Counted from the first letter of the stretch, positions 44,001-49,835 are shown. The stretch: DNA of 64,000 nt from an uncultured Armatimonadetes bacterium (GCA_963717145.1 OY970325.1:1184001-1248000), one strand, 5' to 3'. Notes: generated by a model from the letters alone, not told the origin. Program-made: numbers and translations.

Positions 44001-45390
44001 CGGACTCGTTCGTCCACAAGTTCTTCCGCGAGCGACTCGGGATCAAGCCCTGCCTGGTGATCGAGGTCGACGAGCACAGCGCCGACGCCGGGATGATCAC
44101 CCGTTGCGAGGCCTTCCTGGACAGCCTCGAACACGCAAGTCGAGAAGGCCACCGGCGCGAGGCATTTCCGCCAGGTCGCCATCGATCATGGGACACATCG
44201 GACCGTCCTGATCCCGAACATGAGCGCCCACGCCTATGCCCTCGCCGCCGCCTTCGAGTCCTGCGGCATGAAGGCCGAGGTGCTCCCGACCTCGGACGAG
44301 GAGACCCTGGACTGGGGCCGCCAGTACACGACGGGCAAGGAGTGCTTCCCCTGCATCGTCACGACCGGCGACATGGTGAAGTTCACGAAGCGCCCGGACT
44401 TCGATCGCGACAAGTACGCCTTCTTCATGGGCGGATCGGGCGGGCCGTGCCGCTTCGGGCAATACAACGCCCTCCAGCGCATGGTTCTCGATGAACTGGG
44501 CTACCCCGACGTGCCCATCTATGCGCCGAACCAGGCGTCGAGCTTCTACAACGACATCGGCATCGTGGGCCGCAAGCTCCTGGAGCAGGGCTGGCAGGGA
44601 ATCGTCGCCATCGACATGCTGGAGAAAGGCCTCCGCGAGACGCGACCCTACGAGCTTGTGAAGGGCTCGACGGAGGATGCCTTCGAGCAGGGCGTCAGGA
44701 TCGTAAGCGATGCTATCGCGGGTGATTCCGATCTAGTCCCCGCGCTGAGGGAGTGCCGCAAGGTATTCGAGACAGTGCAGGTCGATCGTAGCGTTCAGCG
44801 GCCGATCATCGGCCTCGTCGGCGAGTTCTACGTCCGCGCCAACGCATTCAGCAACCAGGACGTCGTCCGCAAGATCGAGGAACTCGGCGGCGAGGTATGG
44901 GGCGCTCCGCTCCTGGAGTGGTTCCTCTATCGCAACGTCCGCCGCGCAAATGCGGGCGCGGCTCGCCGGCGACCTGAAGCTCTGGGTCAAGAATCGGGTC
45001 ATGGACTTGTTCATGAAGAAGCACGAGCACGATTTCGCTCACGTCTTCGACGGGTACCTGCGCAACTGCCACGAGCCGTCGAGCAACGAGGTTCTCGAGA
45101 TGGCCGAGCCGTATGTCCATCGGAGCTTCGAGGGCGAGGCGATCATGACTGTCGGCAAGGCGGTGGACTTCGTGAACAAGGGCCTCGCGGGGGTCGTCGC
45201 GGTGATGCCGTTCACCTGCATGCCGGGGACGATCTCGAATGCGCTCCTGAAGCGGGTCCGCGAGGAGATGGGCGAGTTCCCGTTCCTGAACATGGTCTAC
45301 GACGGCGTCGAGCAGGCCACGAGTCAGACGCGCATCGAGGCCTTCATGCACCAGGCGAAGGAGTACGCGAAGCGGCGCTCCAGCTCGTAG
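41064..45390 (+). CDS. 2-hydroxyacyl-CoA dehydratase activase-type multidomain protein (two ASKHA ATPase domains + DUF2229-like region); multiple frameshifts
   Basis: Two GIDVGS...EIGGxDSK...CAAGTGSFL domains; later ETCFPMK, NFGCGPD, ECFPC, GPCRFGQY, PFTCMP across 5-6 ORF fragments. Confidence 0.88.
41410..41508. repeat. REP-like palindrome inserted in frame within the activase gene
   Basis: 31-bp perfect arms CTTTGGAGTGCGGTGGCTCGACACCGCTTTC, 99 bp in total. Confidence 0.92.
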
Positions 45391-45456
45391 CTCGTTCAAC
45401 GGAATAAGGGCCGCCGTCGAGTTCGGCCTGTAGAGTTCTCCCCCTCTGCCGGAGAC

Positions 45457-45657
45457 CTAAGCGTCGGGTGCGGAGGGATGAAGGGCTCGTCTGTTTGTAC
45501 GGCCCTCGATGATCATGCCGCTAAGGTCCCGTGGGGACTTCGCGAGGATTCGGCGGGCTTCATCCACTGATACCGCATTGATTGCCAGTTCTGACCACTC
45601 CAGAGTGGGAAGAGCAACCTGTCCAGCTATGCTTTTCTTTCTAGTTGAGCCCATCAC
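45457..45657 (-). CDS. small hypothetical protein, weakly antitoxin-like
   Basis: VSVDEARRILAKSPRDLSGMIIEGR resembles small antitoxin C-termini. Confidence 0.3.
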   Translation of the reverse strand: MMGSTRKKSIAGQVALPTLEWSELAINAVSVDEARRILAKSPRDLSGMIIEGRTNRRALHPSAPDA

Positions 45658-45684
45658 TAATCACCAGTTCGCAATCCATACGGC

Positions 45685-45708
45685 AAAAAGCCCGCCGGAG
45701 CGGGCTTT
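45685..45708 (-). terminator. intrinsic terminator after tRNA-Met
   Basis: AAAGCCCGC TCCG GCGGGCTTTTT on the minus strand. Confidence 0.85.
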
Positions 45709-45715
45709 CGTGAGA

Positions 45716-45792
45716 TGGTAGCGGAGGGCGGACTCGAACCGTCGACGCCACGGGTATGAGCCGTGTGCTCTAACCAACTGAGCTACTCCGCC
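45716..45792 (-). tRNA. tRNA-Met(CAT), elongator type
   Basis: GGCGGAGTAGCTCAGTTGGTTAGAGC-ACACGG-CTCATAC-CCGTG...GGTTCGAGTCC...CTCCGCTACCA; lacks initiator features. Confidence 0.95.
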
Positions 45793-45804
45793 ATGACCAT
45801 TGTT

Positions 45805-45834
45805 ATTCTACCATCAAGGCGGGCCGTTCGTCAA
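45805..45834 (-). promoter_or_regulatory. tRNA promoter TTGACG-18-TAGAAT
   Basis: -35 at 45829..45834; -10 about 12 bp upstream of the mature tRNA. Confidence 0.75.
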
Positions 45835-45839
45835 CACTT

Positions 45840-47201
45840 CGAATTGCTTCACGAACGATGTTACCGAAACGGAAACGTTGCCTCAGATAAGAATGTTACC
45901 GAAACTGAGGCATGGAGAAGATGACAACTGCATCCGTAAGAGAAGTCGTGAGGCGCAAACGCAAAGAATATGGCAAAGCCACCAAATCGGAGAAGAAGCT
46001 GGTATTGAGTGAAGTCCAGGGATTGACCGGTTACCACAGGAAGTCGCTGGTGAGGCTGTTCGCGAAAGGAGTTCCACCAGCGAGGAGTCCAGTGAGACGC
46101 GCAAGGAAGTCGAAATACGAGCCGATAGCCCACAAGCTGAAGACACTCTGGGCTGCGAGTTTCTACGCGTGCGGTAAGCGTCTGCAGCCGTTTCTGACTG
46201 AGTTTCTACCCATACTGGAGTCATTCGGGGAGATAACGGTTACACCAGAAGAAGAGAGGCTGCTTAACTCGATCAGCGCGTCGAGCATCGACAGGTTGAT
46301 GAAGAAGGAGCGGTCTGCCCTATCGCTAACAGGGAGGACCTTAACAAAGCCGGGGACACTGCTTCGGTCTCAGATCCCGGTGAGGACGTTTGCCGACTGG
46401 GATGAAGCTGAGCCTGGGTTCTTCGAGATGGACTTGGTGGGTCATTGCGGAGGTGACGGGAGCGGAGAGTTCCTGTATACTTTGACTATGACTGATGTAG
46501 CGACCGGATGGGTAGCGCTTGATGGAATGAAAGGCCGAGGGGAGCACGGAACCGTGCTTGCGGTGCAGTCCGCGTCCAAGAGCGCACCGTTTGCAGTCAG
46601 AGGCATAGATACCGACAACGGCGGCGAGTTCATCAACCATCACATGAACAAGTACTGTCGAGCGCACAGGATCACGTTTACGCGCAGTCGGCCTTACAAG
46701 AAGAACGATCAATGTCATGTAGAGCAGAAGAACTGGAGCGTAGTCCGGCAGTTTATAGGTTACCGGCGATTCGAGACGGACGAGCAGCTTGCGGTACTAA
46801 AGGCGATATATCCGCTGATCGTGGCGTATCACAACTTCTGTCAGCCCATGATGCGTCTTAAAGAAAAGGAGCGGATTGGGAGTAAAGTGATCAAACGCTA
46901 TGAGCCTGCGATGACGCCGTACCGCAAGCTGATAAGTGTTGAAGGATGGCTTGACGATGAAGCAAAGGATCGCCTCGATAAAGAACGTAGAGCGACGAAC
47001 CCGGTGGAGCTACTAAGACGCATCCACAGGCTATCATCAAAGCTTGACAGGATGCCGAACAAAGACAGATCGAAAGCGAGCAAGGCGCGGCCCTGAGCGG
47101 CGATCAAGAGCCGATCTGACATACTTGAACACACTACTTGGTAACATTATCAATGACGCAACGAATGGCGTTTCGGTAACAAAGTTAAATGAGGCAACAC
47201 G
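45840..47201 (+). mobile_element. DDE integrase-type IS (ISNCY/IS481-like), copy 1, 1362 bp
   Basis: Imperfect terminal IRs CGAATTGCTTCA / CGTGTTGCCTCA with internal TGTTACCGAA repeats; flanked by the 5-bp direct repeat CACTT. Confidence 0.9.
45912..47096 (+). CDS. DDE (rve-type) transposase
   Basis: EMDLVGHCG, IDTDNGGEFIN, FTRSRPYKKNDQCHVEQKN. Confidence 0.92.
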   Translation: MEKMTTASVREVVRRKRKEYGKATKSEKKLVLSEVQGLTGYHRKSLVRLFAKGVPPARSPVRRARKSKYEPIAHKLKTLWAASFYACGKRLQPFLTEFLPILESFGEITVTPEEERLLNSISASSIDRLMKKERSALSLTGRTLTKPGTLLRSQIPVRTFADWDEAEPGFFEMDLVGHCGGDGSGEFLYTLTMTDVATGWVALDGMKGRGEHGTVLAVQSASKSAPFAVRGIDTDNGGEFINHHMNKYCRAHRITFTRSRPYKKNDQCHVEQKNWSVVRQFIGYRRFETDEQLAVLKAIYPLIVAYHNFCQPMMRLKEKERIGSKVIKRYEPAMTPYRKLISVEGWLDDEAKDRLDKERRATNPVELLRRIHRLSSKLDRMPNKDRSKASKARP

Positions 47202-47207
47202 CACTTG

Positions 47208-47744
47208 TCAGTCAAACGACCCCGTCGGAACGTCTCGGAAGATCGGCAGGTACGTCCGCCAAGTCTCATTCCGAGCGCCATCGAGATACTTAGTCAGGCT
47301 GATGAACGGAACATATCTCGGCTTTCGAGGCTGCTTCATCAGGTGCATGTTGACTTTGTCGAGCGTCTTGTCGCCCTTCTTCGAGTTGCACTTCTTGCAG
47401 CAGCAGACAAGGTTCTCCCAGGTGGACGTTCCACCCAGCCGCTTCGGGGTCACATGGTCGATCGTCAGCTCCCTGGCCTGAAAGCCGCAGTACTGGCACA
47501 TATAGTTGTCACGCGCGAACACGCTCCGTCTGGAGAGACGAAGCTCCGGCAGGGGCCGCTTGACGTGATGCCTCAGCTTCACGACCGATGGCGGGTCGAT
47601 CGCACCGTCGAGCATGTGTATCACACCGTCGTTTGTGTGCAAGACCTCGGCCTTGCCCAGGAAGACCAGGACAATCGCTCGGCGGAGATTGCACACATTG
47701 AGCGGCTCGTAATCGTTATTCAGCACAAGTACCTCTTGGCTCAT
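47208..47744 (-). CDS. HNH endonuclease (McrA/COG1403-like)
   Basis: VLVLNNDYEPL, RD...CQYCG, LTIDHVTP...GG...WENLV.CC..CN..KG; GAGAGGAG RBS. Confidence 0.95.
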   Translation of the reverse strand: MSQEVLVLNNDYEPLNVCNLRRAIVLVFLGKAEVLHTNDGVIHMLDGAIDPPSVVKLRHHVKRPLPELRLSRRSVFARDNYMCQYCGFQARELTIDHVTPKRLGGTSTWENLVCCCKKCNSKKGDKTLDKVNMHLMKQPRKPRYVPFISLTKYLDGARNETWRTYLPIFRDVPTGSFD

Positions 47745-47789
47745 ATCAGATACCCGGTTCTCCTCTCTACGGCAATTCCAGGAACCGCT

Positions 47790-47825
47790 AACAAAAAACC
47801 CGCTATGCCATATGGCACAAGCGGG
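47790..47825 (-). terminator. intrinsic terminator in the HNH gene leader
   Basis: mRNA CCCGCT-TGTGCCATATGGCAT-AGCGGG followed by TTTTTTGTT. Confidence 0.8.
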
Positions 47826-48030
47826 CTACGAACACACCAATACATTTGACGGTTGACGGAATCGGAACACACCATCCTCGGTCAGTCGTAGCCGATTAGC
47901 GCTCAAGCCGTCGAGACAGTCGGCGGCCGGACAATCCGGCGCCATCTCGGCTTTGCGACTGGTCAGCGTATCGTACAGGTCGACAACTCTGCGCACGGGG
48001 GGCGACTCCCATCAACATTTCTTCTTTCGT

Positions 48031-48059
48031 ATTATACCAAGATTCTCGCGACTAGTCAA
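48031..48059 (-). promoter_or_regulatory. near-consensus sigma70 promoter TTGACT-17-TATAAT with TG extension
   Basis: Minus strand TTGACT AGTCGCGAGAATCTTGG TATAAT. Confidence 0.85.
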
Positions 48060-48064
48060 CGCGC

Positions 48065-49426
48065 CGAATTGCTTCACGAACGATGTTACCGAAACGGAAA
48101 CGTTGCCTCAGATAAGAATGTTACCGAAACTGAGGCATGGAGAAGATGACAACTGCATCCGTAAGAGAAGTCGTGAGGCGCAAACGCAAAGAATATGGCA
48201 AAGCCACCAAATCGGAGAAGAAGCTGGTATTGAGTGAAGTCCAGGGATTGACCGGTTACCACAGGAAGTCGCTGGTGAGGCTGTTCGCGAAAGGAGTTCC
48301 ACCAGCGAGGAGTCCAGTGAGACGCGCAAGGAAGTCGAAATACGAGCCGATAGCCCACAAGCTGAAGACACTCTGGGCTGCGAGTTTCTACGCGTGCGGT
48401 AAGCGTCTGCAGCCGTTTCTGACTGAGTTTCTACCCATACTGGAGTCATTCGGGGAGATAACGGTTACACCAGAAGAAGAGAGGCTGCTTAACTCGATCA
48501 GCGCGTCGAGCATCGACAGGTTGATGAAGAAGGAGCGGTCTGCCCTATCGCTAACAGGGAGGACCTTAACAAAGCCGGGGACACTGCTTCGGTCTCAGAT
48601 CCCGGTGAGGACGTTTGCCGACTGGGATGAAGCTGAGCCTGGGTTCTTCGAGATGGACTTGGTGGGTCATTGCGGAGGTGACGGGAGCGGAGAGTTCCTG
48701 TATACTTTGACTATGACTGATGTAGCGACCGGATGGGTAGCGCTTGATGGAATGAAAGGCCGAGGGGAGCACGGAACCGTGCTTGCGGTGCAGTCCGCGT
48801 CCAAGAGCGCACCGTTTGCAGTCAGAGGCATAGATACCGACAACGGCGGCGAGTTCATCAACCATCACATGAACAAGTACTGTCGAGCGCACAGGATCAC
48901 GTTTACGCGCAGTCGGCCTTACAAGAAGAACGATCAATGTCATGTAGAGCAGAAGAACTGGAGCGTAGTCCGGCAGTTTATAGGTTACCGGCGATTCGAG
49001 ACGGACGAGCAGCTTGCGGTACTAAAGGCGATATATCCGCTGATCGTGGCGTATCACAACTTCTGTCAGCCCATGATGCGTCTTAAAGAAAAGGAGCGGA
49101 TTGGGAGTAAAGTGATCAAACGCTATGAGCCTGCGATGACGCCGTACCGCAAGCTGATAAGTGTTGAAGGATGGCTTGACGATGAAGCAAAGGATCGCCT
49201 CGATAAAGAACGTAGAGCGACGAACCCGGTGGAGCTACTAAGACGCATCCACAGGCTATCATCAAAGCTTGACAGGATGCCGAATAAAGACAGATCGAAA
49301 GCGAGCAAGGCGCGGCCCTGAGCGGCGATCAAGAGCCGATCTGACATACTTGAACACACTACTTGGTAACATTATCAATGACGCAACGAATGGCGTTTCG
49401 GTAACAAAGTTAAATGAGGCAACACG
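48065..49426 (+). mobile_element. DDE integrase-type IS, copy 2 (direct orientation, offset 2225 bp)
   Basis: Same ends and identical protein as copy 1; one synonymous AAC/AAT difference seen; no matching 5-bp flanking repeat. Confidence 0.9.
48137..49321 (+). CDS. DDE (rve-type) transposase
   Basis: Protein identical to 45912..47096. Confidence 0.92.
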   Translation: MEKMTTASVREVVRRKRKEYGKATKSEKKLVLSEVQGLTGYHRKSLVRLFAKGVPPARSPVRRARKSKYEPIAHKLKTLWAASFYACGKRLQPFLTEFLPILESFGEITVTPEEERLLNSISASSIDRLMKKERSALSLTGRTLTKPGTLLRSQIPVRTFADWDEAEPGFFEMDLVGHCGGDGSGEFLYTLTMTDVATGWVALDGMKGRGEHGTVLAVQSASKSAPFAVRGIDTDNGGEFINHHMNKYCRAHRITFTRSRPYKKNDQCHVEQKNWSVVRQFIGYRRFETDEQLAVLKAIYPLIVAYHNFCQPMMRLKEKERIGSKVIKRYEPAMTPYRKLISVEGWLDDEAKDRLDKERRATNPVELLRRIHRLSSKLDRMPNKDRSKASKARP

Positions 49427-49507
49427 CCCGGAACCATGAGGCCGGGAACACCGTAGTACCAAGCGGGAGTCTACTCTATGTGAGTGGTCTGAGCGCACAC
49501 GGCCCCG

Positions 49508-49590
49508 GAGCATGTCCTTGACATGCTCGGGGGCCGCGAGAGCGGCGGGAGGGCATGTCCTTGACATGCTCGGGGGCGACTTCGTATACT
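49508..49590 (+). promoter_or_regulatory. promoter TTGACA-18-TATACT with two palindromic operator-like sites
   Basis: GAGCATGTC-CTT-GACATGCTC at 49508 and a 1-mismatch copy at 49551; the second contains the -35 (49561..49566). Confidence 0.65.
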
Positions 49591-49628: not shown

Positions 49629-49807
49629 CCGTAGGGGAGGCCTTCAACGGCCTCCTTCGCGGGCGACCGTTGAAGGTCGCCCCTACGGCTTGCGGACAAG
49701 GGCGACCGTTTGAGGTCGCCCCTACGGGCTACTGGAGGCGGGCGACCGTTGAAGGTCGCCCCTACGGCTTACCGGAGACGGACGGCCATTCAGGGCCGCC
49801 CATACAG
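49629..49807. repeat. GTAG-type REP cluster (GGGCGACCGTTGAAGGTCGCCCCTAC), one inverted plus four tandem units
   Basis: Units at 49661, 49700, 49740, 49780 with 11-12 bp linkers. Confidence 0.9.
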
Positions 49808-49835
49808 CTTGTGAGCAACTCGGAGGTACCCACGC

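Follow-up and report, generated by a model that had tools for sequence, protein, structure and literature searches.

Some bacterial insertion sequences (ISs) choose their target sites with respect to host promoters. Elements with Mutator-like transposases, namely TnGBS, ISLre2 and part of the ISKra4 group, insert 13–17 bp upstream of sigma-A promoters and favour one orientation, according to a 2014 paper whose authors suggested that the polymerase initiation complex is contacted and cited Ty3 (PMC3942029). Promoter-seeking integration in bacteria has hitherto been tied to this one superfamily. Directional insertion at XerC/D sites bound by host proteins has been reported for the ISAba32 subgroup of IS1202, and a safe-haven idea is discussed in the same preprint (bioRxiv 10.1101/2022.12.17.520857). 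The subject of this article is an IS of another lineage, with an integrase-type (rve) transposase, two copies of which lie in a 64,000-nt stretch of DNA from an uncultured Armatimonadetes bacterium (GCA_963717145.1 OY970325.1:1184001-1248000). This whole stretch is referred to as the window, and its coordinates are used throughout unless prefixed C1, which denotes the single contig of 5,366,867 bases that makes up the host genome. We consider it almost certain that this element homes on promoters.

Both window copies are on the plus strand (copy 1, 45840..47201; copy 2, 48065..49426), have a length of 1362 bp, as originally claimed, and differ from each other by a single base. At copy 1, CGTCAA (45829-45834) is followed by CACTT (45835-45839) and by the element, which begins with CGAATTG at 45840; at copy 2, AGTCAA (48054-48059) is followed by CGCGC (48060-48064) and by the same CGAATTG from 48065. 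These junctions are exactly as described in the original prediction, according to which GTCAA is the -35 of a good minus-strand promoter at both sites, and an independent consensus scan re-found the two promoters that it had named. Promoter 1 (45834..45805, TTGACG-18-TAGAAT) faces a tRNA-Met gene (anticodon CAT; 45716..45792, minus strand) beginning 48 nt away from the tip of the IS, and promoter 2 (48059..48031, TTGACT-17-TATAAT) faces an HNH endonuclease gene, which it would serve via a long leader. Both have a TG before the -10 hexamer and, with 10/12 and 11/12 consensus matches, rank above all other minus-strand promoter-like sites between 45600 and 49600.

The host genome contains 22 full copies of the IS, with 99.85–100% identity, and the bounds of the element were set from these copies and their differing flanks. 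A perfect 5-bp target duplication is present at 17 of the 22 (CACTT at 45835..45839 and 47202..47206 for copy 1), 4 of 5 bases are duplicated at one, and no duplication is present at four, including copy 2 of the window, which has CGCGC on its left and CCCGG on its right. Because the duplications vary among copies, the IS tips are exactly CGAATTG...AACACG, and GTCAA lies outside both the element and the duplication. Positions on the target strand are numbered here outward from the IS tip, on the strand leaving the IS, and the promoter score is the number of matches to the 12 consensus positions of the -35 and -10 hexamers. In all 22 copies, the left inverted repeat (IRL) is turned towards a promoter-like site that is directed away from the IS, with a -35 hexamer beginning 6 bases from the tip and a -10 hexamer following after a spacer of 16–19 bp. 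Positions 6–11 are TTGACA-like in all copies (T 21/22, T 17/22, G 19/22, A 13/22, C 17/22, A 10/22). A score of at least 9 was obtained for 17/22 copies, versus 0.038% of 400,000 random genome positions, and a -35 with at least three matches combined with a -10 with at least four for 21/22, versus 0.72% of the random positions. A -35 hexamer of at least 5/6 begins at position 6 in 13 copies and at no other position among 1–33, and a -10 hexamer of at least 5/6 begins at positions 28–31 in 17 copies. No promoter signal was found in the right flanks of the 22 copies. The 12-mer of the IS tip occurs 28 more times in the host genome, in no case preceded by a promoter (best score, 7 of 12); 27 of these occurrences are chance matches and one is a relic beside the 752635 copy, and there were no miniature inverted-repeat transposable elements (MITEs) of the rve IS among them. 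The original prediction of site choice just upstream of sigma70-type promoters, in a fixed orientation and with the core promoter left intact, thus extends from two copies to 22/22, none of which lacks the -35 at that offset, and to the relatives in four other genomes described below.

Two explanations would make this regularity trivial. Insertion might be random, with only the harmless copies upstream of promoters persisting, and intergenic positions are indeed mostly tolerated; however, selection cannot yield one offset and one orientation in 22/22 near-identical, and hence recent, copies, nor the same offset in other phyla, and this explanation is scarcely credible. The promoter might instead belong to a larger repeated unit, as the outer end of the element or a relic of a local duplication, given that GTCAAC is common to both window copies. 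This is just as improbable, because the flanks differ elsewhere, varied duplications sit between the -35 and the IS tip (which places the tip at CGAATTG and GTCAAC outside the element), the downstream housekeeping genes are unrelated, and the empty site in related strains has the promoter without the IS. The last point comes from contigs of four soil-metagenome runs aligned to window 45300-47700. In run X1, a 2819-nt contig with about 95% identity extends through 45792 and 42 further letters and joins straight to 47202, and in run X2, the joint in a 963-nt contig skips 1367 bases (1362 + 5). Related strains thus have the tRNA-Met promoter and a single copy of the duplication, but no IS. The IS itself is found in X1, X2 and X5 as separate contigs of 1363–1375 nt ending at the IS tips (45840/47201), at several times the depth of the flanks. 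We take the element to be an insertion sequence that is active and present in many copies.

Downstream of the promoter-like site there is, at 20/22 sites, either a tRNA or a gene confirmed by Pfam. The tRNA genes (tRNA-Ala, tRNA-Met and tRNA-Asn) start 48–83 nt from the IS tip, and 17 of the 19 downstream open reading frames (ORFs) have Pfam matches (E <= 1e-5), including SecA, PEPCK, glutamate dehydrogenase, E2 acyltransferase, iPGM and ThyX. These tRNAs and Pfam-matched ORFs suggest that the targeted sites are promoters of genuine genes. One downstream ORF encodes an IS66-family transposase, and its site is the weakest promoter match. The host genome also contains one diverged relative of the IS (C1:4942316-4943674, 1359 bp, 62% protein identity, duplication CATGA). 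This relative and the copy at C1:4728348 both adjoin the same kind of IS66-family element end, in which GTAACA...TATTTT is the weakest 'promoter' of the set. The relic mentioned above (C1:751249-751273) is a solo sequence resembling the left end of a related IS (CGAATTGCCTCACG), located directly after the duplication of the 752635 copy, so the same promoter was probably hit twice. At another locus, the left duplication (GTGCT) of the C1:905202 copy is identical to the right duplication of the inverted C1:1425534 copy, 520 kb away. This match suggests an IS-mediated inversion, so recombination between copies probably accounts for part of the loss of duplications; the reciprocal pair of duplications is unmatched, so more than one event would be needed.

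The host genome also harbours an ISKra4-family IS of 1433 bp, which passes the NCBIfam ISKra4 cut-off with a score of 274 bits and is present in 11 copies plus one diverged copy (e.g. C1:128026-129459), with 9-bp duplications. In 12/12 copies, its right end lies 16–17 bp upstream of a TTG hexamer, in line with the published habit. At C1:1487608-1490418, the two ISs share one promoter, with the ISKra4 end 16 bp and the rve IS 5 bp from the -35; both duplications are intact, so the rve IS came second, going in between the promoter and the older ISKra4 element. At two other sites, 17 bases beyond the right end of the rve IS, its flank passes into a roughly 175-bp repeat whose ends are ISKra4-like. 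This repeat, a MITE (C1:2676134-2676308), is also present in more than 25 other places in the host genome; at the two sites in question it lies 17 bp from the -35, with the rve IS inserted between MITE and promoter, and a second promoter-like site is directed away from its other end. The rve and resident ISKra4 transposases have an hhalign probability of 0.08%, and the NCBIfam ISKra4 and ISLre2 models gave no match to the rve transposase at E <= 0.01. By these profile comparisons, the rve transposase is unrelated to the known promoter-targeting Mutator-like families, and two unrelated enzymes apparently pick the same promoter class, differing only in offset.

Relatives of the transposase number at least 7,966 proteins. 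They were sampled by a scan of one genome per species, which returned 80 loci with 38–55% identity in Armatimonadota, Chloroflexota, Acidobacteriota, Actinomycetota, Cyanobacteria, Pseudomonadota and other phyla. The tip CGnnTTG(C/A)CTCA and the 5-bp duplication are conserved among relatives. Among the 50 non-redundant loci that could be scored, 15 have at least 9 of 12 matches, versus 0.13% of control positions, and 19 have a -10 hexamer of at least 5/6 at positions 28–31, which is at position 29 in 15 of them. In five other multi-copy genomes (G041-G045), all copies returned as loci were scored. The habit recurs in four of these five genomes, in which the relatives have 41–47% protein identity: a score of at least 8 was obtained for 5/6 copies in G041 (Acidobacteriota), and a -10 of at least 5/6 for 6/7 in G042, 6/7 in G043 and 3/3 in G045 (all Chloroflexia), with binomial P values per genome of 1e-10 to 5e-6. 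The three Chloroflexia genomes have a poor -35 hexamer (0–4 of 6) but TATAAT at a fixed distance. On the evidence of these loci, the habit is widespread in uncultured phyla.

Taken together, these results are best explained by a promoter-homing rve IS with a polymerase-docked transposase, to which we assign a probability of about 0.6. The DD35E transposase integrates with a 5-bp stagger in the five bases directly upstream of the -35 of housekeeping (sigma-A/sigma70-type) promoters, with the IRL towards the promoter and the transposase gene directed away from the host gene; since core promoter and gene are left intact, such a site is a safe harbour. DNA sequence alone would not guide the transposase, which would dock on a promoter occupied by the RNA polymerase holoenzyme, presumably close to sigma region 4 or to the alpha C-terminal domains, and cut at the upstream edge of the -35 contact. 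Guidance by the polymerase, considered separately from homing, is the mechanism that we favour by a small amount, because the site requires both promoter elements, despite their distance of 6 to 34 bases from the cut, because the -35 can be poor and yet its position is kept (Chloroflexia), because the unrelated ISKra4-family enzyme selects the same sites, and because the target consensus is the sigma70 hexamer TTGACA rather than the TTGCyT of the IS tip. The distance to the -35 is fixed while the spacer varies, which suggests an anchor at sigma region 4 or just upstream. The original prediction had named both reading of TTGAC and promoter-bound RNA polymerase as possible means of site choice, and the comparative data lean towards the polymerase.

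Several points weigh against this explanation. Of the 80 loci, 30 could not be scored, 26 because a left end could not be recognised and 4 because the sequence was too short, and the left ends of the relatives were placed by motif search, so that misplacement is possible. Promoter association was 0/7 in the fifth multi-copy genome (G044, Anaerolineales). In a quick maximum-likelihood tree of 73 transposases, G044 falls within a clade of 20 rows (Shimodaira–Hasegawa-like approximate likelihood ratio test, 97) in which no member is targeting, 11 are non-targeting and 9 are unscored. The single copies on proteobacterial plasmids showed no clear promoter association; among five single copies on proteobacterial or actinobacterial plasmids, four are without a clear promoter, a Mycobacterium plasmid copy has TTGCAT at the right place, and the flanks of two rhizobial copies are alike, so that the true IS end may lie further out. 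Both the firing of the flanking sites and the role of the polymerase are predicted from the sequence. The constancy of the -35 distance in the host genome, with a -10 that floats over a spacer of 16–19 bp, fits direct reading of the -35 equally well, and a -35-like hexamer (TTGCTT or TTGCCT) is located four bases from each IS tip, within the repeat that the transposase presumably binds, and the motif recurs subterminally, so the transposase itself may bind TTG-type hexamers.

The last two observations speak for the main rival, direct readout of a TTG hexamer by the end-binding domain: the N-terminal region that binds TTGCyTCA at the IS ends would bind a TTGACA-like target by mimicry, placing the active sites 5 bp beside it, and no host protein would be required. 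The conservation of the tip CGnnTTG(C/A)CTCA across the family is also in keeping with it. However, the targets track the sigma70 consensus rather than the tip motif (position 4 of the hexamer is A in 13/22 and C in 6/22 copies), the second half-site, TGTTACC, is missing from them, and 17/22 copies have a correctly spaced -10. The Chloroflexia relatives, with a near-perfect -10 and a poor -35, are not explained by mimicry of the ends, and an unrelated transposase uses the same sites. We regard direct readout as unlikely, though it deserves more weight than the other alternatives. A further possibility is that DNA shape is recognized, the enzyme sensing a bend or an easily melted stretch of the promoter rather than polymerase or bases. 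Integrase-type enzymes, such as those of retroviral intasomes, prefer bent targets, and the pattern observed here draws on the -35 as well as the -10; but shape alone would hardly place 22/22 copies to the exact base with respect to the -35 and always in one orientation, and AT-rich or bendable DNA elsewhere is unused, as in the patternless right flanks. Recognition of shape is therefore improbable.

If the polymerase does guide the enzyme, the tree provides a candidate for the part of the protein concerned. The 53 rows outside the clade containing G044 comprise 28 targeting, 8 non-targeting and 17 unscored transposases, and the targeting label is clustered on the tree, with 14 changes versus a mean of 22.4 for shuffled labels (0/500 shuffles gave so low a number). 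The sister clade consists of L041, L048, L119-L144 (the G044 loci, with the tip CGCATTGCATCA) and 18 other loci. Residues ~266–295, just past the catalytic E, best separate the two groups: the targeting group has EQKNW...GY.R.ET.EEL, as against E(E/Q)KNG...GYDR(F/Y)EG..AW in the other group; the sister clade has G rather than W four residues past the catalytic E. This comparison is a correlation from one split, with the five unresolved basal rows (L015, L016, L019, L030 and L075) excluded. Ty3 integrase at Pol III start sites and lentiviral integrase with LEDGF are cases in which a DNA-bound host factor positions an integrase-fold enzyme. LEDGF contacts HIV (human immunodeficiency virus) integrase at about the stretch following the catalytic E, and the clade-separating region of the rve transposases likewise follows the catalytic E; Ty3 and lentiviruses are eukaryotic retroelements, whereas the rve IS is bacterial. 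It is conceivable, if doubtful, that, in a large clade of these enzymes, EQKNW...RFETDEQL (residues ~266–295) serves as a tether to RNA polymerase bound at the promoter, at its sigma region 4 or alpha C-terminal domains, as a bacterial counterpart of Ty3 and LEDGF that arose independently of the Mutator-like promoter-seekers.

The transposase gene of copy 1 (45921..47096, plus strand) encodes 391 amino acids from the second ATG, which has GGAG upstream; an alternative ATG at 45912 would give 394 amino acids. The corresponding ORF of copy 2 is located at 48146..49321 (plus strand). The protein matches Pfam rve over residues 167–263 (38.2 bits, cut-off 32.6) and has an invariant catalytic triad of the DD35E class (D174, D235 and E271 in the 394-residue numbering, 61 and 36 residues apart). 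Its AlphaFold model (predicted local distance difference test, 83; predicted template modelling score, 0.76) suggests a helical N-terminal region (1–133), a disordered linker, an RNase H core, a small beta domain and C-terminal helices. The top Foldseek matches of this model are the intasome integrases of prototype foamy virus and HIV, IS21 IstA and ShCAST TnsB (E about 1e-6), and the family profile matches foamy-virus and HIV integrase cores. In NCBIfam, only weak sub-threshold matches to IS481, IS3 and IS21 were obtained, the best being IS481 (46.4 bits versus a 224-bit cut-off); a Pfam search with residues 1–140 gave nothing even at E <= 10, and the matches in the protein atlas were only 'hypothetical protein' and 'DDE-type integrase' clusters with rve. 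Prediction of a complex between the whole transposase and residues 296–377 of sigma-A (score 0.01, mark 0.32) weighs neither way.

The tips of the element, CGAATTGCTTCA...TGAGGCAACACG, belong to imperfect inverted repeats, CGAATTGCTTCA... and CGTGTTGCCTCA... when both are read inward, and each end contains, twice, a bipartite motif consisting of TTGCyTCA, 7–8 bases and TGTTACC. The left end of copy 1 (45840..45905, plus strand) comprises two tandem repeats of this kind, TTGCTTCA (45844-45851) with TGTTACCGAAAC (45859-45870), and TTGCCTCA (45878-45885) with TGTTACCGAAAC (45894-45905), a layout that recurs in relatives. The right end (47135..47201, minus strand) reads, inward, CGTG TTGCCTCA ... 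TGTTACCGAAAC ... TTGCGTCA ... TGTTACCAAG and also holds two bipartite repeats. The four repeats, two per end, are presumed to be binding sites. Inspection by eye of the junction that abutted IS ends would form in a circle revealed no convincing -35/-10 pair.

The HNH endonuclease gene (47208..47744, minus strand, 178 amino acids) is flanked by the two direct IS copies, in a composite-transposon-like arrangement. An untranslated leader of about 280 nt (47745-48024, minus strand) separates promoter 2 from its start and contains a terminator-like hairpin with a T-run (47820..47803), possibly an attenuator or a riboswitch-like control. As copy 2 lacks a duplication, its right side was rearranged after insertion, and the sequence from 49427 onwards is not the original neighbour. 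Further to the right are a tandem duplicate of about 40 bases (…catgtccttgacatgctcggggg…, 49505-49590), with a plus-strand TTGACA-18-TATACT site, and, after it, four 33-nt palindromic repeats resembling repetitive extragenic palindromic sequences (49659-49810).

The presence of integrase-type and Mutator-like promoter-seekers in one genome, and even on one promoter, points to convergent evolution on the same safe harbour. With one protein of 391 amino acids and an element of 1.36 kb, the rve IS offers a second, simpler system for studying promoter recognition by transposases, and the contrast between the targeting group and its non-targeting sister clade is a natural one for locating the residues responsible. 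The insertion sites also mark sigma-A promoters in the little-studied phyla Armatimonadota, Chloroflexota and Acidobacteriota. Should the tethering model be true, these sites could be used, in uncultured phyla, as a natural map of where sigma-A promoters lie, and the enzyme could be an orientation-specific tool for promoter-adjacent insertion.

The nearest named relatives of the element are the ISNCY/ISBj12-family transposases of rhizobial plasmids (37–39% identity over about 95% of the protein); records annotated 'ISNCY-like element ISBj12 family transposase' have 37.8% identity over 95% of the query. ISBj12-like elements have the same kind of tip (CGCATTGCCTCG), but their transposases are of about 500 amino acids, as against 391 here; the portions consulted of two papers naming ISBj12 contain no word on target choice (PMC8692435, PMC3927601). 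A literature search that extended neither to ISfinder nor to the supplementary tables of PMC3942029 found no rve-type, IS481-like or ISNCY IS described as targeting promoters, in agreement with the original statement that none was known for this IS group. The IS481 family shares the rve core and a short duplication, and its termini, as far as the source describes them, are TGT...ACA, whereas the tips of the rve IS are CG...CG (CGAATTG...AACACG). The ISAba32 subgroup of IS1202 is similar in being rve-related, with a single ORF, a 5–6-bp duplication and an IRL abutting the target, and is set apart, as described in the preprint, by its Xer-site target, TGT termini and proteins of 400–500 amino acids, as opposed to a promoter, CG and 391–394 amino acids (bioRxiv 10.1101/2022.12.17.520857). 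The closest functional parallel is with TnGBS, ISLre2 and ISKra4 (p-MULT 3/4), which are likewise DDE elements inserting in an oriented manner upstream of sigma-A promoters that are left intact. The offset is 13–17 bp in p-MULT 3/4 and 5 bp in 22/22 copies of the rve IS, the end adjoining the promoter is the right inverted repeat in the former and the IRL in the latter, and the duplication is 9 bp in the resident ISKra4 element and 5 bp in the rve IS. What is new here is, thus, the lineage (integrase-type) and the geometry (5 bp, IRL first), the principle having already been published for the Mutator-like families (PMC3942029).

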